Below are positions 19,108 to 35,292 of a stretch of DNA of 45,769 bases, piece after piece. The position numbers were made by a program, and so were the translations under genes. Every line of letters starts with the position of its first letter. Within the stretch, counting starts at the first letter, position 1. A model generated the notes under the pieces. It worked only from the letters and a program-made list of their open reading frames with translations. It did not search any database and was not told the origin of the DNA. The stretch lies in the NCBI GenBank assembly GCA_902803285.1, contig CADCPC010000043.1, positions 1 through 45,769 of the forward strand, given 5' to 3'. This DNA is from an uncultured Erysipelotrichaceae bacterium. Its GTDB lineage: Bacteria; Bacillota_I; Bacilli_A; RFN20; CAG-826.

Positions 19108-20535
19108 ATGGACAAAAAAACAAGAATAGCCATTATCGGTGGTGGTCCAGCTGGACTTTCTGCTGGTATGTATCTCGAACAAAAAGGCTACGAGAACTAT
19201 GTCATTTTTGAAAAGACAGATCACGTTGGTGGAAAATGTCACTCCCCAACATTCCATGGCAAACGTCATGAAATGGGCGCTATCATGGGTGTCCCTAGTT
19301 ACTATGCAGTTCACGATGTCGAACTCTTTGCTGGCGTAACTCACGATGGACCAAAACTACACAGAACTTACCGTTTACCAAATGGTAAAGTTGATCATCG
19401 TTTCGACAAGAGACTCTTCAACATTCCACATCTCTTAAAGCTCAAAAAGCAAATCAAAAAATTTGGTGAAATCTTAGAAACCAAATATAAAGGTTATGAT
19501 GTTTGTGGCCATAGAGGCGTTTCTGAAGGTAGATACGAAGGTTTCGCAGTCACACCTGGTAGAGAACCAGTTAGCGGTGAAAATCCAAACTTAAAAGATT
19601 TAGCAATGCCTTTCAAACAATTCGTTGAAAAGAATGGCGTTCCACTAGTTCAAGAAATTTGGGTCCAACCATTCACATCATTCGGTTACGGATATTTTGA
19701 CGAAATCCCAGCTGCTTATGTCTTAAAATACTTAGACTTCCAAACCATGATGAACTTCGTCAATGTTAACTTATGGACTTGGAAAGATGGTACACAAAGC
19801 ATCTACGAAGCTTTAAATAGAAAGCTCAAACACCCAGCATTATTAAATAGCAACATCGAAAAGATCGTTCGTGGTGATAAAGTTGAAATCACTGTCAACG
19901 GTAAGAAAGAAGTCTTTGATAAATTAATTATCACTGCTCCATTACAAGTTGGTGAAATCAATAACCCAGTCGCTAAAGGATTAGACACATATCTTGATGT
20001 CACTCCAGAAGAAAGAGAATTATTCTCTAAGATCGACTACGAACGTTATGATACATTCGCATGGAATATGGCTCCAGAAGCATATCCAGAAGCATCATTC
20101 TACGTTGTTGACAATATGACACCAGAGACCTTAGGTCATGGTATGGTCTTCTATATGAGATGGGCTGGAGAACCAGAACAACCAATGATCTCTTATAGAT
20201 TACGTAAACACAGAGATCCAAAAGAAACTGTCGAAGAATACAAAGCACGTCCAGAATTAGGATATGAAGAAACAAAGAAAACTTGTATCGAAGATATCAA
20301 GGCTCTTGGTTTAGCTCCTTTGAAGGATGAAAACGGCAGAGACAAGATTATCTATGAATTCCAAACATATTACTTCCCACACGTCTTCTCTGAAGATTAC
20401 GCAAACGGATGGTATGAAAAAGTTGAAGCTATGCAAGGTAAAAACAATACCTACTATGCTGGTGAAGTTATGTCATTCGGTGACATGGACGAAACTGTCG
20501 AATATTCTAGAGATTTAGTCGAAAGATTCTTCTAA
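19108..20535 (+). CDS. FAD-dependent polyunsaturated fatty acid (linoleate) isomerase, Cutibacterium acnes PAI-like
   Basis: Colinear with PAI as recalled: RIAIIG.GPAGL.AGMYLEQ.G, TDHVGGKCHSP, EMGAIMGVPSY, PFT.FGYG.FD..PAAYVLKYLDF.TMM.F, LWTW.DGTQ, YYFPHV.SEDY..GWYEKVE.MQG, YAGE.MSFG. Confidence 0.88.
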   Translation: MDKKTRIAIIGGGPAGLSAGMYLEQKGYENYVIFEKTDHVGGKCHSPTFHGKRHEMGAIMGVPSYYAVHDVELFAGVTHDGPKLHRTYRLPNGKVDHRFDKRLFNIPHLLKLKKQIKKFGEILETKYKGYDVCGHRGVSEGRYEGFAVTPGREPVSGENPNLKDLAMPFKQFVEKNGVPLVQEIWVQPFTSFGYGYFDEIPAAYVLKYLDFQTMMNFVNVNLWTWKDGTQSIYEALNRKLKHPALLNSNIEKIVRGDKVEITVNGKKEVFDKLIITAPLQVGEINNPVAKGLDTYLDVTPEERELFSKIDYERYDTFAWNMAPEAYPEASFYVVDNMTPETLGHGMVFYMRWAGEPEQPMISYRLRKHRDPKETVEEYKARPELGYEETKKTCIEDIKALGLAPLKDENGRDKIIYEFQTYYFPHVFSEDYANGWYEKVEAMQGKNNTYYAGEVMSFGDMDETVEYSRDLVERFF

Positions 20536-20547
20536 TAAAACAATTTT

Positions 20548-20583
20548 GAATAAAAAGGGGAGTTCATCTCCCCTTATTCTTTA
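20548..20583 (+). terminator. Intercistronic hairpin (partial terminator or stabiliser)
   Basis: AAGGGGAG-ttcat-CTCCCCTT with an interrupted T-tail. Confidence 0.55.
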
Positions 20584-20597
20584 TAAAGGAGAGAAAA

Positions 20598-22172
20598 ATG
20601 GCAAATAAACATTTTCAAGATTCGTATGATGTTGTTGTCATTGGTGGTGCTCTTGCGGGACTTGCCAGTGCCTTAACATTAGCAAAAAAAGGAAAAAAAG
20701 TTCTCGTCTTAGAACAACACAATTTACCTGGTGGTATCGCTACTTCTTTTGTGAGAGGAGATGTCGAAATTGAAGGTACACTTCATGAAATGATGTCTAT
20801 CGGACCAAAAGAATGCCCATTAAAGATTAGAAAATTCTTTGATGAAATGGGTGTTGATATCGAATGGTTACGTGTTCCAGATGCTTATCGTTTTGTCGAT
20901 GGTAAAACTGGAGTTAACGTCTTAGTCCATCCTGGAGATCACGGCAATTTTGAAACGCCTGCTCGTGAAATTGCAGAAGCAGTTGAACCAGGAAACGAAG
21001 AACTTTATAAAAAAGTTTTAGACTTACTCAACTTATGTGGTAGAGTTTATGACTCAGTTAACATTCTTTCTGTTACTCACATGTCCAAAGTTCAAATGTT
21101 ATTGAAACATCCAGACTTTGTTAAGACTGCTGGATATAGCGCTAAGGAAGTTGTTGATACATTTAAACTTCCTCAAAAAGTTGTTGATATCTTATCAGCC
21201 TATTGGATTTATGTCGGTGACATTTTAGAAAACTTACCATTTACTGTTTGGGCTTTCTTAATGGGGGATTACCTCGGATATGGTAGTTATGTTCCAAAGA
21301 AATTCTCACACGAAATGTCTCTTAAGATGTGTGAACGCGCAATAGAAATGGGCTGCCAAGTCGAATTTGGTACACGCGTTGATAAAATCTTAGTCAAGAA
21401 TGGACACGTTGAAGGCGTGAGACTTGCTAATGGTGAAGAAGTTAAAGCAAGATATGTTGTTTGTAGTGCTTATCCTGATAAAGCATATACAAAGATGATT
21501 GAACCTCTCAGCGAAGTTCCTGCTGGCGCACTTAAGTTCGTCAATAGTAAAACTGTCGGTGTGACTTGCTTCTCTGTCGTCTTATTGCTAGACGATGAAC
21601 CAGAGAATTTAGGCATCAAAGATTATTCAACTTTCTATGCTCCAAAAGGTATGGACTTAGAAACAATATTCAAAGAATATGCAACAGAAGGTCCTTACAA
21701 TTACATCACTTCTATTTGTACTAACCTTGCTAACCCAGGTTGTACTCCAAAAGGTACTTGTGTATATTCCATTACTGCACTTCCTAGACCAGAAGGTTGG
21801 CTTGGAGTTACAGAAGAAAATTATGAAGAACTTAAACGTAAGAACGCTGAATATTTCATCGATCAAGAATCTAAACGTTTAGGTGTTGATTTAAGAAAAC
21901 ATATTTTAGAAATTGTTATTGAAGCACCTTGTACAATTGCTCACTACACAGGTGCATATCGTGGAAGTATCTACGGTTATATGCACACAATGGATGACCA
22001 TATTGTGGCAAGACTTCAAATGAGTGAAAAAGAAAACTTCATTCAAGGCTTATCTTTCGCTGGCGCTCACCAAATCTCTGGTGATGGTATGGGACCAGCA
22101 GTCACTAATGGTCGTAAAGGCGCAAAGATCATCTTAGACATGATGGAAGAAGACGCTAAGGAGGGCAAATAA
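20598..22172 (+). CDS. CrtI/CrtISO/retinol-saturase-like FAD oxidoreductase
   Basis: DVVVIGG..AGL..A, VLEQHN.PGG.ATSF.RG, P.T...YTG..RGSIYG, GL.FAG...G.G....V..G; SD AAGGAG. Confidence 0.85.
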   Translation: MANKHFQDSYDVVVIGGALAGLASALTLAKKGKKVLVLEQHNLPGGIATSFVRGDVEIEGTLHEMMSIGPKECPLKIRKFFDEMGVDIEWLRVPDAYRFVDGKTGVNVLVHPGDHGNFETPAREIAEAVEPGNEELYKKVLDLLNLCGRVYDSVNILSVTHMSKVQMLLKHPDFVKTAGYSAKEVVDTFKLPQKVVDILSAYWIYVGDILENLPFTVWAFLMGDYLGYGSYVPKKFSHEMSLKMCERAIEMGCQVEFGTRVDKILVKNGHVEGVRLANGEEVKARYVVCSAYPDKAYTKMIEPLSEVPAGALKFVNSKTVGVTCFSVVLLLDDEPENLGIKDYSTFYAPKGMDLETIFKEYATEGPYNYITSICTNLANPGCTPKGTCVYSITALPRPEGWLGVTEENYEELKRKNAEYFIDQESKRLGVDLRKHILEIVIEAPCTIAHYTGAYRGSIYGYMHTMDDHIVARLQMSEKENFIQGLSFAGAHQISGDGMGPAVTNGRKGAKIILDMMEEDAKEGK

Positions 22173-22173
22173 G

Positions 22174-23349
22174 ATGAAAGTTAAAGGCTTTTTAAAAGAC
22201 GTTGGTGGCGCTTCTAGAGTTACCAAAAGAAGACAAGAAAACTTTGATAAAGCTCCTGCAACTTCTCAATATAACGATCCGATTACAGAAGTAGCAAGAA
22301 AACTTCATCCTGGATTCATTAAATTAACTGTAACTGCAGTTAAAGATGCTTCTCCAACAGCGAGAACATTAAGATTCGAAGCTCCACATCTTCCATATTT
22401 CAGAGCTGGTCAATTCTTAACTTTACTAGTTAAGATTGGTGATTCTCTTGTTACTAGACCATATTCCATTTCTAGCGCACCTTATGAGACTAGAGGTGAT
22501 AAGCCATTAGTGGAAATCACTGTGAGAAAATCTAAAGGTGACGGATTCATTTGTGACTACTTATATGAAAAAGTGAAAGTTGGAGATGAATTCCTTGGCG
22601 AAGTTGGTTTAGGTGAATTCCATTATGATTACATTAGAGATGCGAAAGACGTTGTTGCTATCGCTGGTGGTAGTGGCATTACTCCTTTTGCATCAATGGC
22701 AAAAGAAATTAAAAATGGTAAACTCGACATGCATCTCACAATTCTTTATGGTTCTGTCAGTGATAAAGATATCATCTTAAAAGATGAATTAGATAAATGT
22801 GAATGCGAAAAGGTTAGAGTAGTTCACGTTTTAAGCGGTGATAACCCTTCTTGGAAAGGCGAAAAAGGCTTTATCAACGCGGATATCATTAAGAAATATT
22901 CTAGCGAAGACACCACATATTTCATTTGTGGACCACAAGTGATGTATGACTTTGTTAAAGGAGAATTAGCAAAGCTAAATATTCCTAAACGTAGAGTGAG
23001 ATTTGAAGTCTTTGGTCAAGTTAGAGACATCACTAAATTTGCAGGATTCCCAGTGGAATTAAAAGACAAAGTCTTTAACTTAACAGTTTGTAAAGGCATC
23101 TCTGAACAAGTTATTCCTGCAAAATGTAATGAGAGCATTGCTGTCGCACTTGAAAGAGCGGGAATTAAAGTTCATACAGCATGTCGTAGTGGCGCTTGTG
23201 GATTCTGCAGAATAAAAGTTCTTGAAGGTTCATATTATGTTTGCCCAGTTGGCGATGGTCGTAGAGCAGCAGATAAAGACTTCAATTACGTCCATTCTTG
23301 CTCAACTTATCCAACAAGTGATATTAAGATTAAACTTAATATTGACTAA
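22174..23349 (+). CDS. FNR-family NAD(P)H:flavin reductase with C-terminal [2Fe-2S] domain
   Basis: RPYSISS, AGGSGITP, CGP..M, E.FG, CRSGACGFC...C. Confidence 0.92.
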   Translation: MKVKGFLKDVGGASRVTKRRQENFDKAPATSQYNDPITEVARKLHPGFIKLTVTAVKDASPTARTLRFEAPHLPYFRAGQFLTLLVKIGDSLVTRPYSISSAPYETRGDKPLVEITVRKSKGDGFICDYLYEKVKVGDEFLGEVGLGEFHYDYIRDAKDVVAIAGGSGITPFASMAKEIKNGKLDMHLTILYGSVSDKDIILKDELDKCECEKVRVVHVLSGDNPSWKGEKGFINADIIKKYSSEDTTYFICGPQVMYDFVKGELAKLNIPKRRVRFEVFGQVRDITKFAGFPVELKDKVFNLTVCKGISEQVIPAKCNESIAVALERAGIKVHTACRSGACGFCRIKVLEGSYYVCPVGDGRRAADKDFNYVHSCSTYPTSDIKIKLNID

Positions 23350-23358
23350 AGATAATAT

Positions 23359-23393
23359 AAAAGACATCTAAGAGAAATCTTGGATGTTTTTTT
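23359..23393 (+). terminator. Intrinsic terminator
   Basis: GACATCTAAGA-gaaa-TCTTGGATGTT plus T-run. Confidence 0.85.
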
Positions 23394-23419
23394 GTGCACA
23401 ATAAATTAAAATAAGTAAT

Positions 23420-24322
23420 ATGAAAAAGAAGAGCATTATAATTGCCGGTTGCGTTGCTTTAGGCGCGATTATTTTTTCTTGCCTAGGATTTTCTGGCATC
23501 CTCAAACAGAAAAGCAAGAATACGAATTACGCAGATTGGATGTCTCATCTTGCGGATTCAACTTCTTTAAGAGACATCAATATGCCTGGTAGTCATGACA
23601 CAATGGCCTTATATTCTATCGCTGATTTAGCGGGACAGTGCCAGTCATTATCTTTAGGAGATCAACTTAATCTAGGAGTTAGATTCTTAGACATTAGATT
23701 AAAAGAAGAAAATAACTCTTTAAAAGCGGTACATGGTTTTATTGATCAACACGCTTATTTTAGTGATATTACTTCTACTGTTGAATCTTTCTTAGAAAAC
23801 CATCCAACCGAATTTATTATTATGTCGATTAAAGAAGAAGCTGATAGTAGCAAATCTACAATTAGCTTTGAAGAAGCGGTTAAGAATTACCTTAAGAGTG
23901 ATGTTTATTTAAAAGAGACAAGTTTACCAACCTCTTTAGGAACAGTTAGAGGCAAAGTCATGCTTTTATCTAGATATGCGAATTCTTCAATCGGAATCCC
24001 TGCTTATAATGGATGGGCTGATTCTACTTCCTTTACATTACCAAATGATATCTATGTTCAAGATACCTATAAGATTAAATCTAAAGAAGAAAAGCAAGAC
24101 GAAATCATCAAGTGTTTTAATGAGAGTGGTCACGCTTTGAAAATTAATTTCTTAAGTGCGTACCGCACTAACTATTTGCCACCTAGTTATGCACCTAGTG
24201 CAGCCTTAGATATCGACCCTTGGATTAACGCGAATATAGATAAATATAATGACCGCGGTATTGTTTTATATGACTTTGTTACTGAAACAAATATGACCGC
24301 TTTCTTTAAGGGGGCAATCTAA
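23420..24322 (+). CDS. Exported phosphatidylinositol-specific phospholipase C-like (PI-PLC X domain)
   Basis: Signal/TM; WMS.L, PGSHDT, QL..GVRFLDIRL, HG, FL..HP.E..I, RGKV. Confidence 0.88.
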   Translation: MKKKSIIIAGCVALGAIIFSCLGFSGILKQKSKNTNYADWMSHLADSTSLRDINMPGSHDTMALYSIADLAGQCQSLSLGDQLNLGVRFLDIRLKEENNSLKAVHGFIDQHAYFSDITSTVESFLENHPTEFIIMSIKEEADSSKSTISFEEAVKNYLKSDVYLKETSLPTSLGTVRGKVMLLSRYANSSIGIPAYNGWADSTSFTLPNDIYVQDTYKIKSKEEKQDEIIKCFNESGHALKINFLSAYRTNYLPPSYAPSAALDIDPWINANIDKYNDRGIVLYDFVTETNMTAFFKGAI

Positions 24323-24720
24323 TGAAAACTTTTAGAACTATCCTCCTATATATCGGAGCTTCATTTGTCGCTCTAATTGCTTTTTTATTAGCATTTTTAG
24401 AAATTAGAAGCATTTTTGCCGGTGATTTTACACTTATGAATAATAGAGCTGCTAGTTTCTTCGCTTATCTATTTAGAGGTTTATTCTATTTAGGTTTGTT
24501 AGCCGAGGCTATCATTTTAATGATATTCAAAGGCAAACACATCAAGATTGATTTATCATTATTCATTGTTTCTGTTGGCTTATTTGGTGGTGGAATTCTA
24601 GCATTTATTTATTACCACTTCATTGTTGCTTTAGCAGTAACAGTAGTAGCATTGATACCAGTAATTATCACAGCGATTGAACACTTTGCGATTAAAGAAA
24701 AAGACACTGTTGAGGAATAA
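24322..24720 (+). CDS. Hypothetical 4-TM membrane protein
   Basis: Four hydrophobic segments; TAATG coupling to the PLC gene. Confidence 0.7.
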   Translation: MKTFRTILLYIGASFVALIAFLLAFLEIRSIFAGDFTLMNNRAASFFAYLFRGLFYLGLLAEAIILMIFKGKHIKIDLSLFIVSVGLFGGGILAFIYYHFIVALAVTVVALIPVIITAIEHFAIKEKDTVEE

Positions 24721-24724
24721 TAAT

Positions 24725-26416
24725 ATGCCATTAGGAAGCACAATTAACTCTTTGATGATGATTGTTGGCAATATCAACACTGATAAGCCAACTAAGCAGG
24801 TAATTAAAAATCGTAAAAAAGATAAGCCTGCTACTTTTCCTCGTGGGGAAGAAGTTAACTTCTTACCTAGAAGTAGGCCTAGTAAGCATGGTTATTCAGA
24901 GGAATATATCAATTCATTTTTCCATGAATTAGAATCGGATTTATCTATTAGGGCTAACCGTTGTTTAATTGTTAAGGATAACTATGTTATTGGAGAAAAA
25001 TATGAATACCCTTATGTTAAAGATGCTTGGGATCATATATTTTCCGCAACCAAAACAGTTACAACTTTAGCGTTAGGTTTATTATATGATGAAGGCAAAA
25101 TTGATTTAGACGCCCCCGTATATAAAATACTTAAAATTAAACCAGGGAATGCTGCTAATAAAAAGATTACGTTAAGACATTTATTAACTATGACTACTGG
25201 TGTCTTGTTCAATGAAGTTGAAAGTGCAGCAACCACTAAATGGGTTAAAGGATTCTTTGGTTCAGGAGCTAAATTCAAAGTTGGTAAAAAGTTTGATTAT
25301 AATTCACTAAATACATATATCATCTCTGTTGTTGTCGAAAAGATAGCAGGTATTAGCTTTGAAGAATTCATTAAAGAAAGAATATTCAAACCTTTAGATA
25401 TGAATTCTTGCCATTTAGATAAATCTCCAGAAGGATATTTTAAAGGCGGATGGGGATTATATATTCTTCCAGAAGATATGGCAAAATTAGGCATCCTTGT
25501 CAAAGACAAAGGTGTTTATAACAATAAACGTATTATCTCTGAAAAATGGATAGAAATGATGAGCAGTAAACAAATCGAGGCCACTAAATACGGAAGAAGA
25601 TTTGATTATGGCTTTCAAATGTGGGTTTGTGATGAACATCATTTCTGCATGTTCAATGGCCTATATAATCAAGACATCATTATCTTTAAGGAAACAGGAG
25701 TGGTGCTAGTGGTGGCCTCTTCTAACGGAGAAGCGTTCCATGGCTCTAACTATTTCGATATCGCGATTAAATACTTTGCAAGCAAAGAAAAAACTACTGA
25801 ACTTTGCGAGACAAAAGGTTCGAGAGATATTGCAAATTTGTCCCATCTAAATTACTACTATGACAAGATTGCAAATCAAGAATACTTACCTTTGGGTAAG
25901 ATTGCTAATTCTTGTGGTGTTCTACCTCTGTTAATTCAAAATGAAGTAGGCACTTATGCACAAGGAATTAAATCATTATATTTTAAGAAAGAAAATGATC
26001 AGTACGCTCTTGTGATAAACGAAGGAAAAGAGAGCTATGAACTACCATTTAATTTCGAAAATGGAGTTCGTAATATTTATAACTTCTACGGCAATTTATT
26101 TGACTGTGTTTGTGATGGCAGATTTATGCTAACCGCTAAGGGTTTACCTCTATTTGTTTTCAGAATGTTTTTCTTAGAATATTCTTCTTCCAGATACATC
26201 ACTGTGAAATTTGATAAACGATTTGATTTGTTATCATTAGAGTTAAGTGAATATCCAGGATTTGACTTTGTCGCTTCACTTATGGATGAACAAGATGAAC
26301 CGGTGAAGAACCTTCTTAATAGTGCAATGAAGGCAATTAATCCAGCGATATTAAAGGGAAAGATTAAAGATATCTTTGCTCCTAACTTCATGATTAAAAA
26401 GAAGGAAGAGAAATAA
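24725..26416 (+). CDS. Beta-lactamase-fold serine hydrolase (esterase-like) with C-terminal extension
   Basis: FSATK (SxxK), TLRHLLTMTTG, F.YNS, RIF.PL.M, GGWGL, YGFQ.W; ATG 24725 after GAGGA. Confidence 0.85.
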   Translation: MPLGSTINSLMMIVGNINTDKPTKQVIKNRKKDKPATFPRGEEVNFLPRSRPSKHGYSEEYINSFFHELESDLSIRANRCLIVKDNYVIGEKYEYPYVKDAWDHIFSATKTVTTLALGLLYDEGKIDLDAPVYKILKIKPGNAANKKITLRHLLTMTTGVLFNEVESAATTKWVKGFFGSGAKFKVGKKFDYNSLNTYIISVVVEKIAGISFEEFIKERIFKPLDMNSCHLDKSPEGYFKGGWGLYILPEDMAKLGILVKDKGVYNNKRIISEKWIEMMSSKQIEATKYGRRFDYGFQMWVCDEHHFCMFNGLYNQDIIIFKETGVVLVVASSNGEAFHGSNYFDIAIKYFASKEKTTELCETKGSRDIANLSHLNYYYDKIANQEYLPLGKIANSCGVLPLLIQNEVGTYAQGIKSLYFKKENDQYALVINEGKESYELPFNFENGVRNIYNFYGNLFDCVCDGRFMLTAKGLPLFVFRMFFLEYSSSRYITVKFDKRFDLLSLELSEYPGFDFVASLMDEQDEPVKNLLNSAMKAINPAILKGKIKDIFAPNFMIKKKEEK

Positions 26417-26433
26417 CAAATCCTTCTTTTGCT

Positions 26434-26468
26434 AAAATAAGCAAGGTTTAATTACCTTGTTTTATTTT
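26434..26468 (+). terminator. Intrinsic terminator
   Basis: AATAAGCAAGGT/ACCTTGTTTTATT stem. Confidence 0.65.
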
Positions 26469-26493
26469 ATAAAAATCTATACAATATCCTTAC

Positions 26494-27165
26494 ATGAGCG
26501 AAGTAAAAATAGTAGAAATTAAAGAAGATATCTCTGAGAGATATGCTCCTTACGCTGAAGAGATTAGGAAAATTCTTAAAGAGAAGAAAACCTATCTTTT
26601 AAATGTTATGTCTTCTCCAGGAAGTGGAAAGACTACTTTAATTATTGAATTAATTAACAAGCTAAAAAAAGATTTTCATATTGGAGTTCTAGAAACTGAT
26701 ATTGACGGTAAAGAAGATGCTCAAAGGATACATGATGGTACTGGTGTGAGAACTATCCAAATCCATACTGGTGGAGCATGTCATTTAACAAGCAAAATGT
26801 CTCTTGAGGCATTATCTTTACTAGATGATGAACACTTTGATCTAATCGTTTTGGAAAACATCGGCAACCTAGTGTGCCCGGCAGAATTTGATGTTGGGGC
26901 AATTAAGAACTTAATCTTGTTATCTCTACCAGAAGGAGATGACAAACCACTCAAATATCCATTGATGTTTGAAGTTGCTAATATCATCGCAATTACCAAG
27001 CTAGATACTGCTCCTGTATTTGATTTTTCTAAAGAAAAAGCTATTCAAAATATTAAAAAGAGAAATGAACATGTAGATATATTCTTTACTAGTAGCAAAA
27101 CTGGTGAAGGTGTTGATGAGTTAGTTAAATATCTAACTAATGAAGTTAAGGAATTTATTAAATAA
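26494..27165 (+). CDS. hypB: HypB-family metallochaperone GTPase, copy 1
   Basis: MSSPGSGKT, TGGACHL, ENIGNLVCPAEFD.G, EGDDKPLKYP, TKLD, S.KTG.G. Confidence 0.93.
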   Translation: MSEVKIVEIKEDISERYAPYAEEIRKILKEKKTYLLNVMSSPGSGKTTLIIELINKLKKDFHIGVLETDIDGKEDAQRIHDGTGVRTIQIHTGGACHLTSKMSLEALSLLDDEHFDLIVLENIGNLVCPAEFDVGAIKNLILLSLPEGDDKPLKYPLMFEVANIIAITKLDTAPVFDFSKEKAIQNIKKRNEHVDIFFTSSKTGEGVDELVKYLTNEVKEFIK

Positions 27166-27836
27166 TGAGTGAAGTTAAGACTATTTTACTTAATCGTTCA
27201 GTAGCGGATTCCATTGAAGAAGAAGCAGAAGAACTCAGGCAAGAATTAAAGGCTAAAAAGACCTTCCTTTTAAATGTCATGTCTTCTCCTGGAAGTGGAA
27301 AAACTACAACCTTAATCAAGATTATTAACGCTCTTAAAGATAAATTCAAAATTGCAATTATGGAAGCTGATATCGATAGTGATGTTGACGCTATTAAAGT
27401 TTCTAAAGAGACAGGCATCAAATCTATTCAACTCCACACTGGTGGCATGTGCCACTTAGATGGAGCGATGACTAGACAAGGCCTAGATGAATTAGATGGA
27501 CATTATGACTTTGTCATATTAGAGAATGTTGGTAACCTCGTTTGTCCAGCGGAATTTGATACCGGAGCTTCACTTAACATGGTTATTCTTTCTGTTCCAG
27601 AAGGAAGTGATAAACCACTCAAATATCCATTGATGTTTGAAAAAAGTAACCTCGTTCTTATAAATAAGATTGACACAATTGATTATTTCGATTTCAATTA
27701 TAATGTAGTCAGCGACTTTATTTATAAAAGAAATAAAAATGCGCAGATATTCAAAATATCGGCAAAAGTAGGCACGGGCATCAAAGAAGTATGTGACTAT
27801 TTAACTAAGGAAATTGAAAACTGGGGAGGAAAATAA
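27165..27836 (+). CDS. hypB: HypB-family metallochaperone GTPase, copy 2
   Basis: MSSPGSGKT, TGGMCHL, ENVGNLVCPAEFD.G, EGSDKPLKYP, NKID, SAK.G.G. Confidence 0.93.
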   Translation: MSEVKTILLNRSVADSIEEEAEELRQELKAKKTFLLNVMSSPGSGKTTTLIKIINALKDKFKIAIMEADIDSDVDAIKVSKETGIKSIQLHTGGMCHLDGAMTRQGLDELDGHYDFVILENVGNLVCPAEFDTGASLNMVILSVPEGSDKPLKYPLMFEKSNLVLINKIDTIDYFDFNYNVVSDFIYKRNKNAQIFKISAKVGTGIKEVCDYLTKEIENWGGK

Positions 27837-27839
27837 TAC

Positions 27840-30767
27840 ATGCCAGAACAATATAAGAAAAATCCTGCTACTATCTCCAAATATGATGGGATAGAACTCA
27901 AGACAGAAGAAGAAAAAAGACTTTTCGAAAAGTACGCTGCTCTTGGCAAGAAAATTACTGACAACGTCAGAACAAAACTAGGCGGAGTCAAAACAACATC
28001 ACCTGAATGGTGGGGTCTAAGAGAAATGCTTACAGAAGAGGAAGTTGATTTTGCTCTTCGCATGAAGCTCAGAAAATGGTACACCATGGAACAACTTGTC
28101 GAAATGCAAAAGAAACAATTCGACGCTCAACAAGTTAAAGACATTACATGGTCATTATCCGTTAAAGGTTTAATCGAATACGACTGGGGAGATCATTATA
28201 ATGATGACGGTCCTATTCCAAATGCACCTACTGATAAGAGATATAGAATTTCATTCTTTGTTCCTGGTAGTGCTGAATTATTCAACTCTTCATTAGATAG
28301 AATTGAATCAAGACCTGCAGTTGCTAACTTTTTTGAAAGAATGACATTCTTACCACTTGAACATGTTACTCACATGGTAAGACCTGGCGGTAACGGTATT
28401 GGTATGCACGTTATCCCTGTTGAAAAAGCAATTGAAACCAACCCAGAAACAATTAAAATCGAAAAGATTTCATATTGGATGAAGAAATATAAGGGACACG
28501 TATCTGCTGGTATCTGTTCGTGTCGTGCTTCTAGAGCAATGCTCGGTGAAGGATGTGAAGATGATATCAATGACTGGTGTATCCAATTAGGCGATATGGC
28601 TGACTACACTGTTGAAACAGGTAGAGCTCACTATATCACCGAAGAAGAAGCATTTGAAACCTTCAGGAAAGCAGAACAAAACGGATTTGTTCACCAAGTT
28701 ACCAACATCGATGGCGATGATCATATCTTCGATATCTGTAACTGTGATGTTAAGATTTGTAACGCTTTAAGAACTGCTCTTCTATATAACACTCCTAATA
28801 TGCAAAGAAGTAGTTTTACTTCTGTTGTTGATAAACAAAAGTGTGTTGCTTGTGGACGTTGTGTCGAAGCTTGTCCAGCAGGCGCACTTAAATTAGGTCA
28901 AAAATTATGTAAGGCTGATGGCACTGAAGTTCAATATCCAAAACAACCATTACCAGACAAGATCAAATGGGGCAAATACGCTTGGGATGAAAACTATCGT
29001 GATACAGCAAGAGTTAATACACATGATTCAGGTACTGCTCCATGTAAAACAGCATGTCCTGCCCATGTCCCAGTTCAAGGCTATCTAAAGATGGCTAACC
29101 AAGGACGTTATAGAGAAGCTTTAGCTCTCATTAAGAGAGAAAACCCATTCCCGGCAGTCTGTGGTCGTATTTGTAATAAGAGATGTGAAGACGCTTGTAC
29201 TAGAGGTACAATCGATTCTCCAGTTTCTATCGATGCAGTTAAGAAGTTCTTAGCTGAATACGAAATCAAGAGTGGCAAATATGTTGTCCCAGAAAAGATC
29301 GTTCCAAAAGTCAATGGTGAATTCGACGATAAGATCGCTATCATTGGTGCTGGTCCAGCTGGCTTATCCGCTGCTTACTATTTAGGCGTTATGGGTTACC
29401 ATCCAACAGTGTTTGAAAAGAATGAAAAACCTGGTGGAATGTTAAGATATGGTATTCCTTCATATAAACTTGAAAAAGATGTTATCGATGCCGAAATTGA
29501 AGTCATCAAAGAACTTGGTGTTGAAATCAAGTGTGGCGTTGAAGTTGGCAAAGATATCACAATTGATGAACTCAAAAAACAAGGCTACAAAGCATTCTAT
29601 GTTGCTATTGGATGCCAAGGTGGTAGAAGACCTGGAGTTGCTAACGACACAGCTGAAGGTACAGAAATCGCTGTTGATTTCTTAAGAAGAGCTAGCGCAG
29701 ACAAAAAACCTACATTATCAGGTGATGTCGTAGTCGTTGGTGGTGGTAACGTCGCTATCGACTGTGCACGCGTTTCTTCTAGACTAGGCGCTGGTAAAGT
29801 CAGCATGTTCTGTCTCGAAAGTAAAGATACAATGCCTGCAAGCAAAGAAGAGATTTTCGAAGCTGAAGATGAAGGCATCGTAATCAACCCATCTTATGGT
29901 CCAAAAGAAGTAAAAGTTGACTCAAAAGGCCATGTTTCTTCAATTATTTTCAAGAGATGCTTATCCACTTTAGATGAAAACGGTAAGTTCGCTCCTAAGT
30001 ATGATGAAGAAGATACAATTGAAGTTCCAGCTAACCACATCATCTTCGCAATTGGTCAAACAATTGTCTGGGGTGACTTATTAAAAGGAACAAAAGTTAC
30101 TTATTGGAGAAATGGTTATCCAGTCGCTGACAAGTTAACCTATCAAACCGCTGATGACGATATCTTCGTTGGTGGTGATGTCAATACAGGCCCACGCTTT
30201 GTTATCGACGCAATCGCACAAGGTCATGAAGTCGCAACTTCCTTAGCAAGACATTGCCGTTGGAATGCTTCTATGACAATTGGTAGAGATAGAAGACACT
30301 TCGTCTCCTTAAATAAAGAAGACATCTTAATTCCAAGCTACGATGAAGCTGGAAGACAAGAAGCTGGTTTAGATCCAAATATCGATCACCGCAAGTCATT
30401 CAGAGATGCTCACTTAACATTAACTGAAGAGCAAGTTCACATTGAAACAAACAGATGCTTAAGCTGTGGTGCAACAATTGTTGATCCAAATAAATGTATC
30501 GGTTGTGGTATTTGTACAACTAGATGTGAATTTGACGCTATCAAGTTAGTGAGAGACCATCCAAAATGTTCTGATATGCGTAAAGCAGAAAACAAAGTCA
30601 CTGGTTTATTAGGCTATGCTGCAAAACGTGCTATCAAGATTGCATTACATTCCGGCAGTAAAGAAGCTCGTGAAATGCGTGCAAGACGTAAAGCGTGGAA
30701 TAAGGCTCATAAGAATGATCCAAATACCCATACTGGTTACGCAGTACCTCTTCCAGAAAGAAAATAA
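27840..30767 (+). CDS. Multi-domain Fe-S flavoprotein (Cys/His-rich N-domain + ferredoxin + GltD/NfnB-like FAD/NAD(P) module + ferredoxin)
   Basis: CSCR..GC..C..HQ..ICNC..C; CVACGRCVEACP; APCKTACP..CGRIC...CEDAC.R; IIGAGPAG; GGGNVAID; RCLSC..CIGCGIC...C. Confidence 0.85.
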   Translation: MPEQYKKNPATISKYDGIELKTEEEKRLFEKYAALGKKITDNVRTKLGGVKTTSPEWWGLREMLTEEEVDFALRMKLRKWYTMEQLVEMQKKQFDAQQVKDITWSLSVKGLIEYDWGDHYNDDGPIPNAPTDKRYRISFFVPGSAELFNSSLDRIESRPAVANFFERMTFLPLEHVTHMVRPGGNGIGMHVIPVEKAIETNPETIKIEKISYWMKKYKGHVSAGICSCRASRAMLGEGCEDDINDWCIQLGDMADYTVETGRAHYITEEEAFETFRKAEQNGFVHQVTNIDGDDHIFDICNCDVKICNALRTALLYNTPNMQRSSFTSVVDKQKCVACGRCVEACPAGALKLGQKLCKADGTEVQYPKQPLPDKIKWGKYAWDENYRDTARVNTHDSGTAPCKTACPAHVPVQGYLKMANQGRYREALALIKRENPFPAVCGRICNKRCEDACTRGTIDSPVSIDAVKKFLAEYEIKSGKYVVPEKIVPKVNGEFDDKIAIIGAGPAGLSAAYYLGVMGYHPTVFEKNEKPGGMLRYGIPSYKLEKDVIDAEIEVIKELGVEIKCGVEVGKDITIDELKKQGYKAFYVAIGCQGGRRPGVANDTAEGTEIAVDFLRRASADKKPTLSGDVVVVGGGNVAIDCARVSSRLGAGKVSMFCLESKDTMPASKEEIFEAEDEGIVINPSYGPKEVKVDSKGHVSSIIFKRCLSTLDENGKFAPKYDEEDTIEVPANHIIFAIGQTIVWGDLLKGTKVTYWRNGYPVADKLTYQTADDDIFVGGDVNTGPRFVIDAIAQGHEVATSLARHCRWNASMTIGRDRRHFVSLNKEDILIPSYDEAGRQEAGLDPNIDHRKSFRDAHLTLTEEQVHIETNRCLSCGATIVDPNKCIGCGICTTRCEFDAIKLVRDHPKCSDMRKAENKVTGLLGYAAKRAIKIALHSGSKEAREMRARRKAWNKAHKNDPNTHTGYAVPLPERK

Positions 30768-30770
30768 TTC

Positions 30771-31121
30771 ATGCATGAATTAGGCATTGTGTTTCATATC
30801 ATCAAAGATATTGACAAAATTGCCGAAGAGAATCACGTTAAACAAGTTAAAAGTGTAACCCTTGAACTCGGTGAAGTTTCAGGAGTCATTCCTGAATACC
30901 TAGTCGATGTATGGAATTGGGCATGTGAAAACAAGTCCAAGTACATGAAGGGCTGCAAACTTGATCTTAAGATCATTAAAGCAATCACTTTCTGTGATAG
31001 CTGTAAGAAAACATATTCCACTTTAAAAGGCAAGATTTGCCCTTATTGTGGCAGTAAAGAAACGTGGCTATTAGAAGGCAACGAAACGAAAATAAAAAGC
31101 ATAGAAGTAGTGGATTCCTAG
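30771..31121 (+). CDS. hypA: HypA nickel metallochaperone
   Basis: N-terminal MHE Ni-binding motif; GE.SGV; CDSC...CPYCGS zinc finger. Confidence 0.95.
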   Translation: MHELGIVFHIIKDIDKIAEENHVKQVKSVTLELGEVSGVIPEYLVDVWNWACENKSKYMKGCKLDLKIIKAITFCDSCKKTYSTLKGKICPYCGSKETWLLEGNETKIKSIEVVDS

Positions 31122-31139
31122 TGAGTCCACTTTTCTTTT
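31109..31139 (+). terminator. Terminator closing the hyp operon
   Basis: AGTGGATTC/GAGTCCACT plus T-run. Confidence 0.75.
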
Positions 31140-31197
31140 GTTGTTTAACATTTTGTTTTTTAGAATAAAAATGTTAAAATGCATACGTCAAAAGCGT

Positions 31198-32115
31198 ATG
31201 AAAATTATTATTTTAATGTCCACATATAACGGGACAAAGTACCTTAGAGAACAATTAGATAGCATATATAATCTTGATAACATCGGTGATATTTCTATTC
31301 TTGTTAGAGATGATGGCTCTAAAGATGGAACACAAGATATTCTAGAAGAATATAAACGTAGTCATGATAATTTTGATTGGTATCAAGGAGAGAATTTAAG
31401 ACCGGCAAGAAGCTTCTGGCAGTTGATGAAAGTTGCTCCTGATGCAGACTTTTATGCTTACGCTGATCAAGATGATGTTTGGGATAAAGATAAATTAGTG
31501 ATTGCCACTAAAGCTTTGGAACCTTTTGATAAGAAAACCCCTCTATTATATTTCTCGGATGTTCGTGTCGTAAGAGCGGACTTATCTTTGATGTATAAGA
31601 ATATGATTCAAACAAATATGCCAATCGATTTCCCTCACTCACTCATTAAAAATGTGTGTCCGGGATGTACCTATGTCTTTAATAAAGCGGCTAGAGATAT
31701 CGCTCTTAAGTTTGATCCTGATATTTATGAATTAGATATCCATGACTGGGCAATGCATAGAATTGTCGCTTGCTTTGGCCATATTGTTTTAGATAGAACC
31801 GCTCATATGTCTTATAGACAACATGGTAATAATGTTATTGGCGCTAATCGTAATGGCATTTTTGGCAGAATTGTTGAGACTCTTAAGAAATCTAAGAATC
31901 CAAAGTTTGTTAACTTGAGACTACGTAACGCAAGAGCGTTTGAAGAATGCTACGCTAACGATATGAACCCTGAAAATAGATATACTGTCTATTTACTCGC
32001 CCACTATATCGAAGACAAGAAATTAATGAAAGCTGTTCTTAAGGACCCAAGGTTTAAATTTGGATTCATGGAATATACATATTTCAAATGGAGAATTCAT
32101 TCAGGCAAGTTCTAA
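31198..32115 (+). CDS. GT2 glycosyltransferase (RgpB-like rhamnosyltransferase)
   Basis: LMSTYNG..YL.EQLDSI, RDDGS.D.T, DQDDVW..DKL, GCT, HDW, YRQH..N.IG. Confidence 0.9.
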   Translation: MKIIILMSTYNGTKYLREQLDSIYNLDNIGDISILVRDDGSKDGTQDILEEYKRSHDNFDWYQGENLRPARSFWQLMKVAPDADFYAYADQDDVWDKDKLVIATKALEPFDKKTPLLYFSDVRVVRADLSLMYKNMIQTNMPIDFPHSLIKNVCPGCTYVFNKAARDIALKFDPDIYELDIHDWAMHRIVACFGHIVLDRTAHMSYRQHGNNVIGANRNGIFGRIVETLKKSKNPKFVNLRLRNARAFEECYANDMNPENRYTVYLLAHYIEDKKLMKAVLKDPRFKFGFMEYTYFKWRIHSGKF

Positions 32116-32116
32116 T

Positions 32117-32977
32117 ATGAAAATAGATGTTATCGTTCCTATATATAAGGAATTTGATGAAGTTAAAAGTTTATATTGCTCTTTATTAGAACAAAAAGAT
32201 GTAGAGATAAATAAAATTATCTTTCCTTTTACTTTATCTAACGAAAAAGTCGATGATGAATTAAGAGTGTTTATTAAAGAGAATGGCATTGTTTCTTTTG
32301 AAATGCCTTTAGAGAAATTCTCTCATTCTCTTACAAGAGAAAAGGCGATTAGAGAATATGCGGAATGTGATGTTGTCCTCTTAATGAGTCAAGACGTCAA
32401 GCTAGTGGATGAACATTCCATTTATAATCTTGTAAAAGAAGTGAATAATGAAGTTGTTTATGTCTTTGGCAAACAAATTTGCACTAATAAGAGCATTGAA
32501 AAATATATTCGTAAGAAGAATTATCCAGAAACAAGTTATGTAGTTAGCAAAGAAGATATTGAAGCTAAACAGTTGATGGCCTTCTTTGCTAGTGATGCAT
32601 TTTCCGCTTTAAATAGAAATGTATTCATCGATATCGGTGGATATCAAGGCTATGACATCATGATGGGTGAAGACATGTTATATTCCAAATTTGTTTTAGA
32701 TCATGGTTACAAGAAAAAATATGTGGCAGAAGCAGTGGTAGAACACTCTCACAAATATACATTGAAACAGTTATATGACCGCTATTATGAAACTGGTAAG
32801 TTCCATAAGCAAGTAGGGTTATTTGAAAACTATAAGTCAACTGATTCTGGAATGAAGTTAGCCTTATACGTCTTAAAAGAAGCCCTTAAGCATTTCGATA
32901 TTCCAGTTTTATTTAGATGGCTTCCAGATATGACATCTCGTTATCTAGGGATGAAGAAAGGAAAAAAAGCAAAATGA
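32117..32977 (+). CDS. GT2 glycosyltransferase (RfbN-like rhamnosyltransferase)
   Basis: FSH..TR, SQD, FGKQ, FFASD, ED, V.HSH.Y.L.....RY. Confidence 0.85.
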
Positions 32978-33858
32978 AAGGCATTATCTTAGCAGGAGGA
33001 AGTGGCACAAGATTATATCCACTTACCTTAGTAACTTCCAAACAATTATTACCAGTTTATGACAAACCAATGGTCTATTATCCACTTAGCATCTTAATGT
33101 TAGCGGGTATTAGAGATATTTTGATTATCTCCACTCCAGAAGACACTCCTAAGTTTGAACAATTATTAGGAGATGGTAGTCATTTTGGTATCCATCTATC
33201 ATACTGTGTTCAACCTTCTCCAGATGGATTAGCACAGGCTTTTATCTTAGGTGAAAAGTTTATTGGTGATGATGCTTGTGCGATGGTTCTTGGAGATAAC
33301 ATCTTCTACGGAAATGGATTAAAACATTCTCTTGCGAACTCTGTTAAAAGAGCAGAAGAAGGCAAAGCCACAATTTATGGTTATTTTGTTCCAGATCCAG
33401 AGAGATTTGGTGTGGTGGAATTTGACTCTAATGGTGTGCCAACAAAAATTGTTGAAAAACCAAAAGATCCAAAGAGCAACTACGCAGTTACTGGTTTATA
33501 TTTCTATCCAAAAGGTGTTTCTAAAGAAGCAAAAGCGATTAAACCTAGCCCTAGAGGAGAATTAGAAATTACAGATTTAAACTGCCGTTACCTTGCTAGT
33601 GGAAAATTACACGCGGAATTTTTAGGCCGTGGTTGTGCCTGGCTTGATACTGGTACACATGAATCTCTAGTAGAAGCAACTACATTTGTTAAGACAATCG
33701 AAGAACAAATGGGATTAAAGGTGTCTTGCCCAGAAGAAATTGCATATAACAATGGCTGGCTCAGTAAAGAAAAATTAATTGAGATTGGTCAAACAATGGC
33801 TAAAAACCAATACGGTCAACACTTATTAAATGTTGCCGCTGGTAAGATTAGATATTAA
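32974..33858 (+). CDS. rmlA: Glucose-1-phosphate thymidylyltransferase
   Basis: [50 protein letters not shown]. Confidence 0.97.
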
Positions 33859-33868
33859 GGAGCGTTTT

Positions 33869-34414
33869 ATGTTTAATATCATTAAGACTGAAATTGAAGG
33901 AGTAGTGATTCTTGAACCAAAAGTTTTTGGCGATAATCGTGGCTACTTCATGGAAACATATAACGAAAAAGATTTTAAAGAAGCAGGTTTAGATTATAAC
34001 TTTGTTCAAGACAATCAATCTCGTTCTATCAAAGGTGTTTTAAGAGGCTTACATTTTCAGAAGCATTATCCACAAGCAAAATGTGTTAGAGTTCTTGAAG
34101 GTGAAGTCTATGATGTAGCGGTCGATTTAAGAAAAGATAGTCCAACTTATGGTAAATATGTCGGAGTTCTTCTTTCCGCTGAAAATAAACGTATTTTTAT
34201 GATTCCTAGAGGATTTGCTCATGGGTTTGTTGTTCTTAGTGATACCGCAACCTTCACATACAAATGTGATGACTTCTATCATCCTGAAGATGAAGGAGGT
34301 ATTATTTGGAATGATCCTACTATTGCAGTAGATTGGCCTTTAAAAGAAGGAATCATTCTCTCTAGTAAAGATGAAAAGCTTCCAACATTTGTTGAAGCAA
34401 ACATTAAGTTTTAA
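33869..34414 (+). CDS. rmlC: dTDP-4-dehydrorhamnose 3,5-epimerase
   Basis: D.RGYF.E, FVQDN.S.S..GVLRGLHFQ, DVAVDLR..SPT, GFAHGF, YKC. Confidence 0.97.
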   Translation: MFNIIKTEIEGVVILEPKVFGDNRGYFMETYNEKDFKEAGLDYNFVQDNQSRSIKGVLRGLHFQKHYPQAKCVRVLEGEVYDVAVDLRKDSPTYGKYVGVLLSAENKRIFMIPRGFAHGFVVLSDTATFTYKCDDFYHPEDEGGIIWNDPTIAVDWPLKEGIILSSKDEKLPTFVEANIKF

Positions 34415-34416
34415 TT

Positions 34417-35292
34417 ATGAATAAAGAATTAAGAGTACTTGTCACTGGAGTTAAAGGACAACTTGGCTACGACTGTGTTAGAGAATTGAAAGAGCGTGGT
34501 TACACGAATGTTTTAGGCATTGATATTGAACAGCTTGATATCACTGATGAAAAGGCTGTACACGCCTTTATTAATGAATTTAAGCCAGATGTAGTAATGC
34601 ACAATGCCGCTTGGACTGCAGTTGATAAAGCAGAAGCAATGCCGGATCTTGTTTACAAAGTAAACGCTCTAGGCCCTAAATATATCGCTGAGGCATGTAA
34701 AGAAGTTGGTGCAAAGATGATTTATATCTCTACCGACTATGTTTTTAACGGCAAAGGCGAAAAAGCTTTTGAAGTTAATGATCCAAAAGAAGGATTATCA
34801 GTATATGGCAAAACCAAGGCCGCTGGAGAAGATTTTGTAATTAATGGTAATGACAAACATTTCATTATCCGTATTTCTTGGGTGTTTGGTATTAACGGCA
34901 ATAACTATGTTAAAACCATGCTTAAACTTGCTGAAACCAAAACTGAACTTAATATTGTTTGTGACCAAATTGGTTCCCCAACATATACTTATGATTTGAG
35001 CAAATTGATGTGCGATATGATGGAAAGTGATAAATATGGTGTTTATCATGCGACTAACGAAGGATTCTGCTCATGGTATGATTTCACCAAGTATATTTAT
35101 GAAGTAGCGGGTATTACATCAGTAGAAGTTAAACCTATAACTACTGCGGAATATAAGAAACTAGTCCCTAATCAAGCTGATCGCCCACTTAATAGTAGGA
35201 TGAGCAAGGCTTCTTTAGATAAAGCAGGATTTAATCGCCTTCCTACTTGGCAAGACGCTACATCAAGATTTATTAAAGAACTTCAAAAATGA
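34417..35292 (+). CDS. rmlD: dTDP-4-dehydrorhamnose reductase
   Basis: TG..GQLG, AA.T.VD.AE, ISTDYVF.G, YG.TK, DQ.GSPT, RP. Confidence 0.97.
   Translation: MNKELRVLVTGVKGQLGYDCVRELKERGYTNVLGIDIEQLDITDEKAVHAFINEFKPDVVMHNAAWTAVDKAEAMPDLVYKVNALGPKYIAEACKEVGAKMIYISTDYVFNGKGEKAFEVNDPKEGLSVYGKTKAAGEDFVINGNDKHFIIRISWVFGINGNNYVKTMLKLAETKTELNIVCDQIGSPTYTYDLSKLMCDMMESDKYGVYHATNEGFCSWYDFTKYIYEVAGITSVEVKPITTAEYKKLVPNQADRPLNSRMSKASLDKAGFNRLPTWQDATSRFIKELQK

Follow-up and report, generated by a model that had tools for sequence, protein, structure and literature searches.

Contig CADCPC010000043.1 of an uncultured Erysipelotrichaceae bacterium (assembly GCA_902803285.1) carries a four-gene operon in which two hypB genes and one hypA gene flank a gene for a 975-residue iron-sulfur (Fe-S) flavoprotein. 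The whole stretch of DNA that was analysed, 45,769 nucleotides (nt) of the forward strand, is referred to here as the window. A first-pass annotation made from these letters alone had proposed that the HypA and HypB chaperones serve the flavoprotein, and the genome and family comparisons presented below strongly support this protein as their predicted client. The operon itself is real. Its four open reading frames (ORFs) lie on the + strand in the order hypB1-hypB2-flavoprotein-hypA with gaps of -1, 3 and 3 nt, the start of hypB2 overlapping the stop of hypB1 by 1 nt, and family profiles identify the encoded proteins. The flavoprotein gene is preceded by a strong Shine-Dalgarno sequence (GGGGAGG), and none was found before the ATG of hypB1. 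Coordinates of all features are collected in Table 1.

Table 1. Features of the operon, of the flavoprotein it encodes and of the lipid-related genes upstream (window positions).
Feature	Position	Strand	Size and description
hypB1	26494-27165	+	223 aa; ORF call, family profile
hypB2	27165-27836	+	223 aa; ORF call, family profile
IsrA-family Fe-S flavoprotein	27840-30767	+	975 aa; proposed HypAB client
N-domain	27840-28829	+	aa 1-330; no Pfam/NCBIfam family (residues 1-328 unmatched)
Candidate metal site	28515-28760	+	C226-S-C228-R229, C247, H285, N289, C300-N301-C302, C307
Ferredoxin-type [4Fe-4S] motif	28824-28892	+	aa 329-351; C335, C338, C341, C345
GltD/NfnB-like module	29034-30254	+	Fer4_20 aa 399-478, Pyr_redox_2 aa 498-795
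C-terminal ferredoxin-type Cys motifs	30456-30566	+	C873, C876, C886, C889, C892, C896 (aa ~873-909)
hypA	30771-31121	+	116 aa; profile and aligned residues
Terminator-like hairpin after hypA	31109-31131	+	9-bp stem, then T-run; overlaps hypA stop codon
Terminator-like hairpin before the operon	26439-26462	+	9-bp stem, T-rich tail; 3' of upstream beta-lactamase-fold gene
Promoter-like motif TTGTTT-17-TACAAT	26457-26485	+	-35 at 26457-26462, -10 at 26480-26485; weak
AMP-binding, fatty-acid-CoA-ligase-like gene	17678-19066	-	divergent from the PAI-like gene
PAI-like flavoprotein	19108-20535	+	475 aa; homologue of P. acnes polyunsaturated fatty acid (linoleate) isomerase
CrtI/carotenoid-isomerase-family flavoprotein	20598-22172	+	TIGR02734 77.4 bits, below cut-off 238.1
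FNR-like reductase	22174-23349	+	FAD_binding_6, NAD_binding_1, 2Fe-2S; 1 nt after the CrtI-like gene

The terminator that had been annotated after hypA was found as described, a hairpin followed by a T-run. A second hairpin, located after the beta-lactamase-fold gene, would set the operon apart from the genes upstream. Terminator-like sites number 6 in a scan of the window, compared with 2.4 +/- 1.4 in shuffled sequences. The claim of a promoter belonging to the operon has a weak basis. The motif is present exactly as proposed, but its -35 element matches at 3 of 6 positions and is located in the 3' arm of the upstream hairpin, and its -10 element ends only 8 nt before the hypB1 ATG. A promoter scan of the window did not list it, and promoter-like sites show no enrichment there (13 versus 17.0 +/- 3.9 in shuffles). 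Parts of the stretch occur in 12 RNA-library runs from animal gut. In four runs, each from a different study, contigs account for 15-21 of 30 bins; most of these bins fall in the flavoprotein gene, and hypB1 is covered by none of the RNA-library contigs. Two contigs, X3 (30683-30849) and X5 (30498-30809), bridge the flavoprotein-hypA junction and reach 31 nt or more to either side of it; two others at the hypB2/flavoprotein junction, with fewer than 31 nt on the hypB2 side, were left uncounted. The bridging contigs hint at co-transcription.

HypA and HypB insert nickel into [NiFe]-hydrogenase and, in Helicobacter, also into urease. The two HypB proteins of the window share 51% identity, and each scores above the cut-off of the TIGR00073 equivalog for HypB (219.1 and 205.2 bits for HypB1 and HypB2; cut-off 121.2). 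Their translations show the motifs GSGKT, GGACH/GGMCH and NLVCP. HypB1 is a G3E GTPase in which the P-loop GSGKT and the CH...C metal motif of the G-domain are present; a metal site rich in Cys or His is absent from its N-terminus. In HypB1 the guanine motif is TKLD, not NKxD, and in HypB2 it is the canonical NKID, so the tandem HypBs may differ in nucleotide specificity. Judged by sequence, the two may also act as a heterodimer. HypA passes Pfam family PF01155 (103.2 bits; cut-off 28.9), and its M1-H2-E3 terminus and zinc-site residues C75, C78, C90 and C93 are unchanged in all 21 aligned operon-linked HypAs. Both chaperones look functional. The system shares with its classical counterparts the MHE and Zn(Cys)4 sites of HypA and the P-loop and CH...C motif of HypB. 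It differs from them in its tandem duplication of hypB and in having an Fe-S flavoprotein as would-be client, and neither a [NiFe]-hydrogenase large subunit nor a urease was found in its own genome or in 32 sampled genomes with the operon.

The absence of a known nickel enzyme, first claimed for the window, extends to the genome of which the window is contig 43 (G000; 1,036,820 bp in 73 contigs, 91% complete, 1.2% contaminated). Profile searches of this genome recovered a single HypA and no match for the [NiFe]-hydrogenase large subunit (NiFeSe_Hases, PF00374), Prismane/carbon monoxide dehydrogenase (CODH), LarA, urease alpha or HypD. Searches with tblastn returned no match for the Ech large subunit, Ech small subunit, HypD or HypF of another genome of the same class (G181); hypC and hypE were not searched separately. 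The genome does hold two [FeFe]-hydrogenase large-subunit genes, at G000:C12:7424-8269 (-) and G000:C14:1289-1972 (+).

Comparison across the window's class ties the two components closely together. In a sample of 301 genomes, the N-terminal 330 residues of the flavoprotein (the N-domain) matched in 33, HypA scored over its cut-off in 33, and 32 genomes were common to both, with the genes side by side. The only N-domain match without HypA (G153) is a 253-residue fragment with a stop codon. The only HypA without the flavoprotein (G181) belongs to an Ech-type hydrogenase cluster with hypA, hypB, hypF and hypD, whose large subunit has both CxxC Ni-Fe motifs. A [NiFe] large subunit exceeded its cut-off in 2 of the 301 genomes (G063 and G181), CooS in none, and urease alpha in 7 of 300, one genome being unscored. 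Among the 32 genomes with the operon, matches over cut-off to a [NiFe] large subunit, to CODH or to urease are all absent. Had these genomes encoded a hydrogenase or urease lacking its own hypAB, the chaperones could have been assigned to it; such a case was found in 0 of 32, which leaves the proposed client relation unrefuted on this point. This near one-to-one co-occurrence, together with the clean case of genomes with no other nickel enzyme found, is new here.

Some matches in the same sample stay below their cut-offs. Sub-threshold NiFeSe_Hases hits occur in G002 and G074. The hit in G002 was considered as a hidden hydrogenase and rejected, both CxxC motifs of its large-subunit homologue being lost and the surrounding cluster being complex-I-like. 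That locus (L020; G002:C3:25000-37000) holds a complex-I/Ech-like cluster with 49-, 30- and 20-kDa subunits, NADHdh and two antiporter-like subunits, followed by a 602-residue GltD-like Fe-S flavoprotein, and may encode an NAD(P)H-linked membrane complex. Matches to TIGR01702 are likewise weak (at most 40 bits against a cut-off of 478), and the ORFs of about 550 residues in which they occur are taken to be hybrid-cluster-protein-like.

The flavoprotein family is large, and its linkage to hyp genes is conserved. A protein search scored at least 7,999 clusters, all with E <= 0.001; over residues 1-400 the top 120 show 65-100% identity, and 'FAD-dependent oxidoreductase' is the sole name given to them. 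With the N-domain alone as query, 973 representatives were recovered. Among 23 distant ones that were scanned, 11 have 846-945 residues and both Fer4_20 and Pyr_redox_2, while the other 12 are shorter, carry part of the domain set or no Pfam family and, being short, are taken to be fragments. The N-domain thus appears to be almost always fused to a GltD module. Loci were fetched three times, as a first set of 16, a second set of the best 80 of at least 590 stretches, and a third set, for a clade of proteins of about 900 residues, of the best 80 of at least 591. The hypA gene adjoins the flavoprotein gene in 14 of 16, 72 of 80 and 62 of 80 loci, respectively, and hypB is present in 9 of 16, 56 of 80 and 66 of 80. 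Two hypB copies were seen in 3 of 16 loci of the first and 8 of 80 of the second fetch; the exact order hypB-flavoprotein-hypA characterises 55 of 80 in the third. Among the eight second-fetch loci without hypA, four are cut by a contig end (L041, L043, L102, L108), whereas in the remaining four (L048, L076, L084, L094) the gene is truly missing from the flank. Counted over distinct full-length copies, hypA lies within 600 nt of 141 out of 169.

In the 975-residue protein, Fer4_20 and Pyr_redox_2 both exceed their Pfam cut-offs, which predicts a GltD/NfnB-like module with two [4Fe-4S] clusters and an FAD/NAD(P)H-binding domain; the subfamily cut-off of NF009410 (PRK12771) is not reached (440.6 versus 516 bits). 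The full-length AlphaFold model has a mean predicted local distance difference test (pLDDT) score of 82.4 and a predicted template modelling (pTM) score of 0.84. Its structural relatives are limited to the NfnB/GltD-like subunits of bifurcating NfnABC and StnABC. Foldseek matched it to 9bov_A (E 1.1e-41, 35% identity) and 8oh5_C, and a profile search of PDB sequences matched residues ~399-878 to 9bov_A with E 4.9e-92. The module with its two [4Fe-4S], FAD and NAD(P)H sites is common to the window protein, NfnABC (9bov, 9n5u) and StnABC (8oh5), but the NfnABC and StnABC subunits have other partner domains, no 330-residue N-domain and no HypAB linkage. The N-domain folded alone gave a mean pLDDT of 76.2. 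Foldseek returned no match for this model at E <= 0.001, a wide VIA search retrieved winged-helix regulators only (residues ~19-170, best Z 6.6, a common level), the best PDB profile hit had E 0.0071, and an atlas structure search yielded fragments of the family itself. For the Cys-rich half of the domain (~205-330), searched as part of the whole N-domain, the Foldseek, VIA and PDB profile searches gave no solved-fold match.

This Cys-rich half contains the candidate metal site. All 177 full-length copies that were aligned share C226, C228, R229, C247, H285, N289, C300, N301, C302, C307 and R311 without exception; they span 41-100% identity to the window protein and correspond to 169 distinct copies (8 were fetched twice). 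Of the 177, 176 retain E279 and 159 retain C239; the 18 copies without C239 all belong to the window's clade, a hyp-less paralogue group included. A tree of the 177 copies resolves two clades, each with support 1.0, namely the ~900-residue clade at 41-47% identity to the window protein and the window's own clade at 51-100%. The invariant ligands, a His and two CxC motifs among them, exceed the need of one [4Fe-4S] cubane, and the site is hence compatible with a heterometal centre.

The hyp-less paralogue group is represented in the same genome. A second flavoprotein copy (G000:C15:15979-18660; L033 5902-8727) encodes 941 residues, 52% identical to the window protein, and no hyp gene was detected in the examined part of contig 15. 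Its neighbours there are uninformative (a uridine kinase, an F420-ligase-like protein, an FAD protein and a leucine-rich-repeat protein). The group comprises 8 distinct copies, has hypA adjacent in one of them, and carries Val in place of Cys at position 239.

The first-pass annotation had called the enzyme undescribed, and this is where it fails: the family (IsrA clade 9), its HypAB linkage and the proposal of a nickel site were published in 2023 (PMC10134865). Its interpretation, partly supported, was right in substance and existed already as a published hypothesis, and its observation of the operon is confirmed. Kronen et al. described IsrA, a protein of 901 residues, as an isoprene-induced putative isoprene reductase of Acetobacterium wieringae ISORED-2. 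The isr operon encodes two HypA, one HypB and a ferredoxin, HypA and HypB being isoprene-induced as well, and the ISORED-2 genome has neither a [NiFe]-hydrogenase nor hypCDEF. Over 988 homologues, co-occurrence was reported as 0.73 for HypA and 0.56 for HypB. Six cysteines of IsrA, including the CxC motifs C180-C182 and C254-C256, were assigned to a putative 'cluster V', which was likened to the P-cluster, the double-cubane cluster and the A-cluster of acetyl-CoA synthase (ACS) and was proposed as a HypAB-loaded nickel site, with a call for biochemistry (PMC10134865). The chemistry proposed is the reduction of unactivated conjugated dienes, isoprene and, in strain Y, butadiene. Isoprene was reported not to be reduced by Acetobacterium strains whose homologues are 47-49% identical (PMC10134865), so the isoprene function is not transferable. 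An oleate hydratase gene adjoins the homologues of A. woodii and A. fimetarium (PMC10134865). In a Pelotomaculum enrichment supplied with isoprene, hypA and hypB transcripts were reported to rise about 373- and 585-fold (10.64898/2026.02.25.708027).

The window protein shares with IsrA its architecture: an unassigned N-domain (~270-330 residues), a ferredoxin motif, Fer4_20, an FAD/NAD(P) domain and a C-terminal ferredoxin motif. The spacing of the CxC motifs is 74 residues in both (C180/C254 in IsrA, C226/C300 in the window), hypA and hypB adjoin the gene in both, and both hosts are without [NiFe]-hydrogenase. It differs in its longer N-terminus and total length, in an operon with two hypB and one hypA gene, and in a host in which no other nickel enzyme was found, whereas ISORED-2 has CODH/ACS and LarA. 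A further difference is the link to a PAI-type isomerase in the window; the main text of PMC10134865, as distinct from its supplementary tables, mentions neither such an isomerase nor a link to linoleate. Membership of the window protein in IsrA clade 9 is probable on the shared described features rather than on a joint tree with VUZ27132.1. Acetobacterium or Pelotomaculum records were absent from the 176 named loci listed in the three fetches. The A-cluster of ACS is a Cys-Gly-Cys nickel site bridged to a [4Fe-4S] cluster. A CxC motif near an Fe-S chain is common to ACS and the window protein, and the number of ligands would suit a nickel placed beside an Fe-S cluster. The two showed no similarity in the sequence and fold searches, and the maturation factors differ, that of ACS being AcsF, not HypAB (PMC10134865).

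A lead on the substrate comes from lipid-related genes upstream. The PAI-like protein matches 2b9w_A with E 2.3e-118, over residues 2-136 and 163-475 of its 475; 2B9W and 2BAB are structures of the P. acnes polyunsaturated fatty acid isomerase, PAI (PMC13003489, PMC6162330), and PAI-type enzymes are described as trans-10 producers (PMC10019597). The ten genes at 19108-31121 are co-directional with gaps of at most 77 nt. The PAI-like gene is followed by the CrtI-like and FNR-like genes, and then, before hypB1, by a gene resembling phosphatidylinositol-specific phospholipase C, a small membrane protein gene and the beta-lactamase-fold gene. Upstream and divergent from it lie the AMP-binding gene, which has a homologue in the same place in L006 and L046, and an acyl-acyl carrier protein (ACP) thioesterase gene. 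The CrtI-like gene is tied to the operon in a minority of loci. The beta-lactamase-fold protein (24677-26416) has as its best NCBIfam match 3-succinylated cholic acid synthase, at 170.4 bits far below the cut-off of 800, and directly 3' of the operon (31138-35292) are ORFs that, from their translations by eye, resemble glycosyltransferases and dTDP-rhamnose synthesis enzymes.

The PAI-like gene recurs near the operon, and its place there is in many cases either between hypB and hypA or just 5' of the flavoprotein gene (L007, L012, L019, L044, L047, L053, L062-L066, L068). In the window's subclade (support 1.0), the fetched flanks of 14 out of 43 distinct copies include such a gene at 40% identity or more; for the ~900-residue clade the count is 0 of 82 distinct copies. 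A more distant PAI-like gene occurs in nine loci of the latter clade, and in 6 of 80 third-fetch loci (L135, L152, L169, L172, L175, L188) a PAI/amine-oxidase-like gene with 26-29% identity is located about 1-4 kb upstream. These last six hint at a pairing of isomerase and reductase that has arisen or persisted more than once in the family. Of the 301 genomes in the class sample, 9 have a PAI-like gene. Each of the nine belongs to the set of 32 with the operon, and every one of the seven genomes whose N-domain shares 63% identity or more with that of the window is in this group.

The host's lipid metabolism was examined in the genome as a whole. No beta-ketoacyl-ACP synthase (PF00109) was found in G000, compared with 14 of 14 reference genomes in which the same search succeeded, and three DegV/FakB-type genes are present (C14:23791-24648, C7:5154-6014, C5:1494-2318). 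Its lipids are hence probably built from scavenged fatty acids. Since the chemistry proposed for IsrA is diene reduction and PAI makes a fatty-acid conjugated diene, we propose that the PAI-like protein supplies the substrate and that the flavoproteins of the window's subclade reduce conjugated linoleic acid (CLA). The same chemistry is known as the CLA reductase (CLA-R) activity of Butyrivibrio fibrisolvens, in which a fatty acid with a conjugated diene is reduced to the monoene (PMC2654759, PMC12254105). Our literature search found no report that links PAI with HypAB and an IsrA-like reductase, or this family with fatty-acid biohydrogenation.

We read the flavoprotein as an NAD(P)H-linked reductase that is matured by HypAB, probably contains nickel and acts on unactivated conjugated dienes, with CLA as a possible substrate in the window's subclade, and assign this reading a probability of roughly 0.6. 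NAD(P)H, possibly together with ferredoxin, would reduce the FAD of the GltD/NfnB-like module, and electrons would then travel along the chain of [4Fe-4S] clusters to the Cys-rich site of the N-domain, with its two CxC motifs, two or three further cysteines, one His and one Glu. HypB, as two paralogues that presumably form a heterodimer, and HypA would load nickel in or beside this site. The nickel-loaded site would be the catalytic centre at which an unactivated conjugated diene is hydrogenated. In the window's subclade, that diene would probably be a PAI-made conjugated fatty acid (trans-10,cis-12 CLA), in a host that appears unable to make fatty acids and would scavenge them. That the metal is nickel, and catalytic, we infer here as Kronen et al. 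did (PMC10134865). A more specific version is possible but less likely than not. In it, the window's IsrA-like subclade would supply the reductase that is still missing from fatty-acid biohydrogenation in gut and rumen, as a nickel-iron-sulfur flavoenzyme matured by HypAB that draws on NAD(P)H, and possibly ferredoxin, to hydrogenate the trans-10,cis-12 CLA made by the linked PAI-type isomerase.

Several observations count against this reading. On the side of maturation, HypA falls below the stricter TIGR00100 equivalog cut-off (69.3 versus 88.1 bits). Co-transcription amounts only to a hint because the evidence consists of contigs and RNA libraries can contain DNA. No purified enzyme or metal analysis was found in a literature search for any family member. 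On the side of nickel, no importer of the CbiM/NikM or NiCoT type was found in G000 (other importer types were not searched), the N-domain searches returned no sequence or fold tie to a known nickel site, and the Cys-rich site could hold an all-iron cluster. On the side of the substrate, a PAI-like gene is absent from 23 of the 32 genomes with the operon, which means that other substrates must exist for the family at large, and from the fetched flanks of 29 of the 43 window-subclade copies. The PAI-like gene of the window is 6 kb away from hypB1 on its upstream side, with three other genes and a terminator-like hairpin intervening. Four of the nine PAI genomes come from one genus, which reduces them to about five or six independent lineages. 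In a sample of the order of G301, PAI-like was found in G301 only (1 of 89), and the co-occurrence is thus unreplicated outside the class. The CrtI-like and FNR-like pair could itself be the diene reductase.

The alternative that survives best keeps a HypAB-dependent diene or alkene reductase but gives it a substrate other than a fatty acid, for instance a small unsaturated compound such as isoprene, butadiene or a terpene. A separate pathway would then be formed by the PAI-like gene and the CrtI-like/FNR-like pair, and it would be this pair that saturates the conjugated fatty acid. Polyene saturases occur among CrtI-family enzymes, the CrtI-like and FNR-like genes are 1 nt apart, three genes and a hairpin part the two gene groups, and most operon genomes lack the isomerase. 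Reduction of isoprene and butadiene is, moreover, what IsrA itself has been tied to (PMC10134865). These points are opposed by the 11 of 80 second-fetch loci in which the PAI-like gene is embedded in the hyp/flavoprotein group or adjoins it, in most cases without a detected CrtI-like or FNR-like gene (each is present in 2 of 80 overall), by the presence of the hyp/flavoprotein system in 9 of 9 PAI-bearing genomes of the class sample, and by the Acetobacterium homologues that leave isoprene unreduced. We consider this alternative possible, with the odds against it.

A less probable alternative, which we rate as unlikely, accepts maturation of the flavoprotein by HypAB but makes the site an all-iron Fe-S cluster (P-cluster-like, double-cubane or an unusual [4Fe-4S]) or a zinc site, with the Hyp proteins acting as a general metal- or cluster-assembly GTPase and scaffold instead of nickel donors. 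HypB G-domains bind zinc too, and the missing importer and the lack of similarity to a known nickel site would agree with such a role, as would the six to seven conserved cysteines, since CxC motifs are also found in Fe-S proteins, among them ferredoxin:thioredoxin reductase and ISCA2 (PMC10134865). Nickel is favoured over iron or zinc by the M-H-E terminus, which binds nickel and is kept in every aligned operon-linked HypA. HypAB are normally not needed for Fe-S assembly, and characterised HypA/HypB pairs are described as all delivering nickel (PMC10134865).

That the adjacency reflects no client relation at all, with HypAB serving another nickel protein (unassembled or of an unknown family) or nickel storage and homeostasis and the flavoprotein being an Nfn-like transhydrogenase with an Fe-S/winged-helix accessory domain, is very improbable. 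In its favour, the genome is only 91% complete, the GltD module is nearest to NfnABC and StnABC subunits and the N-terminal part is weakly winged-helix-like. Against it, the linkage is kept across two deep clades at 41-47% identity, HypA and flavoprotein co-occur almost one to one, no operon genome has a known client over cut-off, and the sole HypA genome without the flavoprotein has a classical hydrogenase.

Relative to the published hypothesis, this analysis delimits the candidate site more precisely, sets apart a subclade in which hypB is duplicated in tandem, and adds a substrate hypothesis that joins the IsrA-like family to fatty-acid biohydrogenation. The genomes considered here provide a cleaner case than the published Acetobacterium because they have no other known nickel enzyme; HypA and HypB are retained in a 1-Mb genome apparently for the flavoprotein alone. 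The PAI link makes a CLA reductase of the trans-10 biohydrogenation route, a route tied to low milk fat in cows (PMC10019597), directly testable by experiment, and cultured carriers of related family members exist in Pseudobutyrivibrio (P. xylanivorans DSM 14809, P. ruminis AD2017) and Gemmiger (G. formicilis DFI.6.10; loci of the three strains L090, L092, L113). The reach of the system is broad, with at least 590 species-level genomes in each of two scans and at least 7,999 protein clusters. If HypAB do load nickel into these proteins, they would constitute a new nickel enzyme class and a third type of client for the hydrogenase nickel chaperones. If the CLA reading is also correct, small-genome bacteria that are auxotrophic for fatty acids would turn toxic dietary linoleate into usable monoenes.

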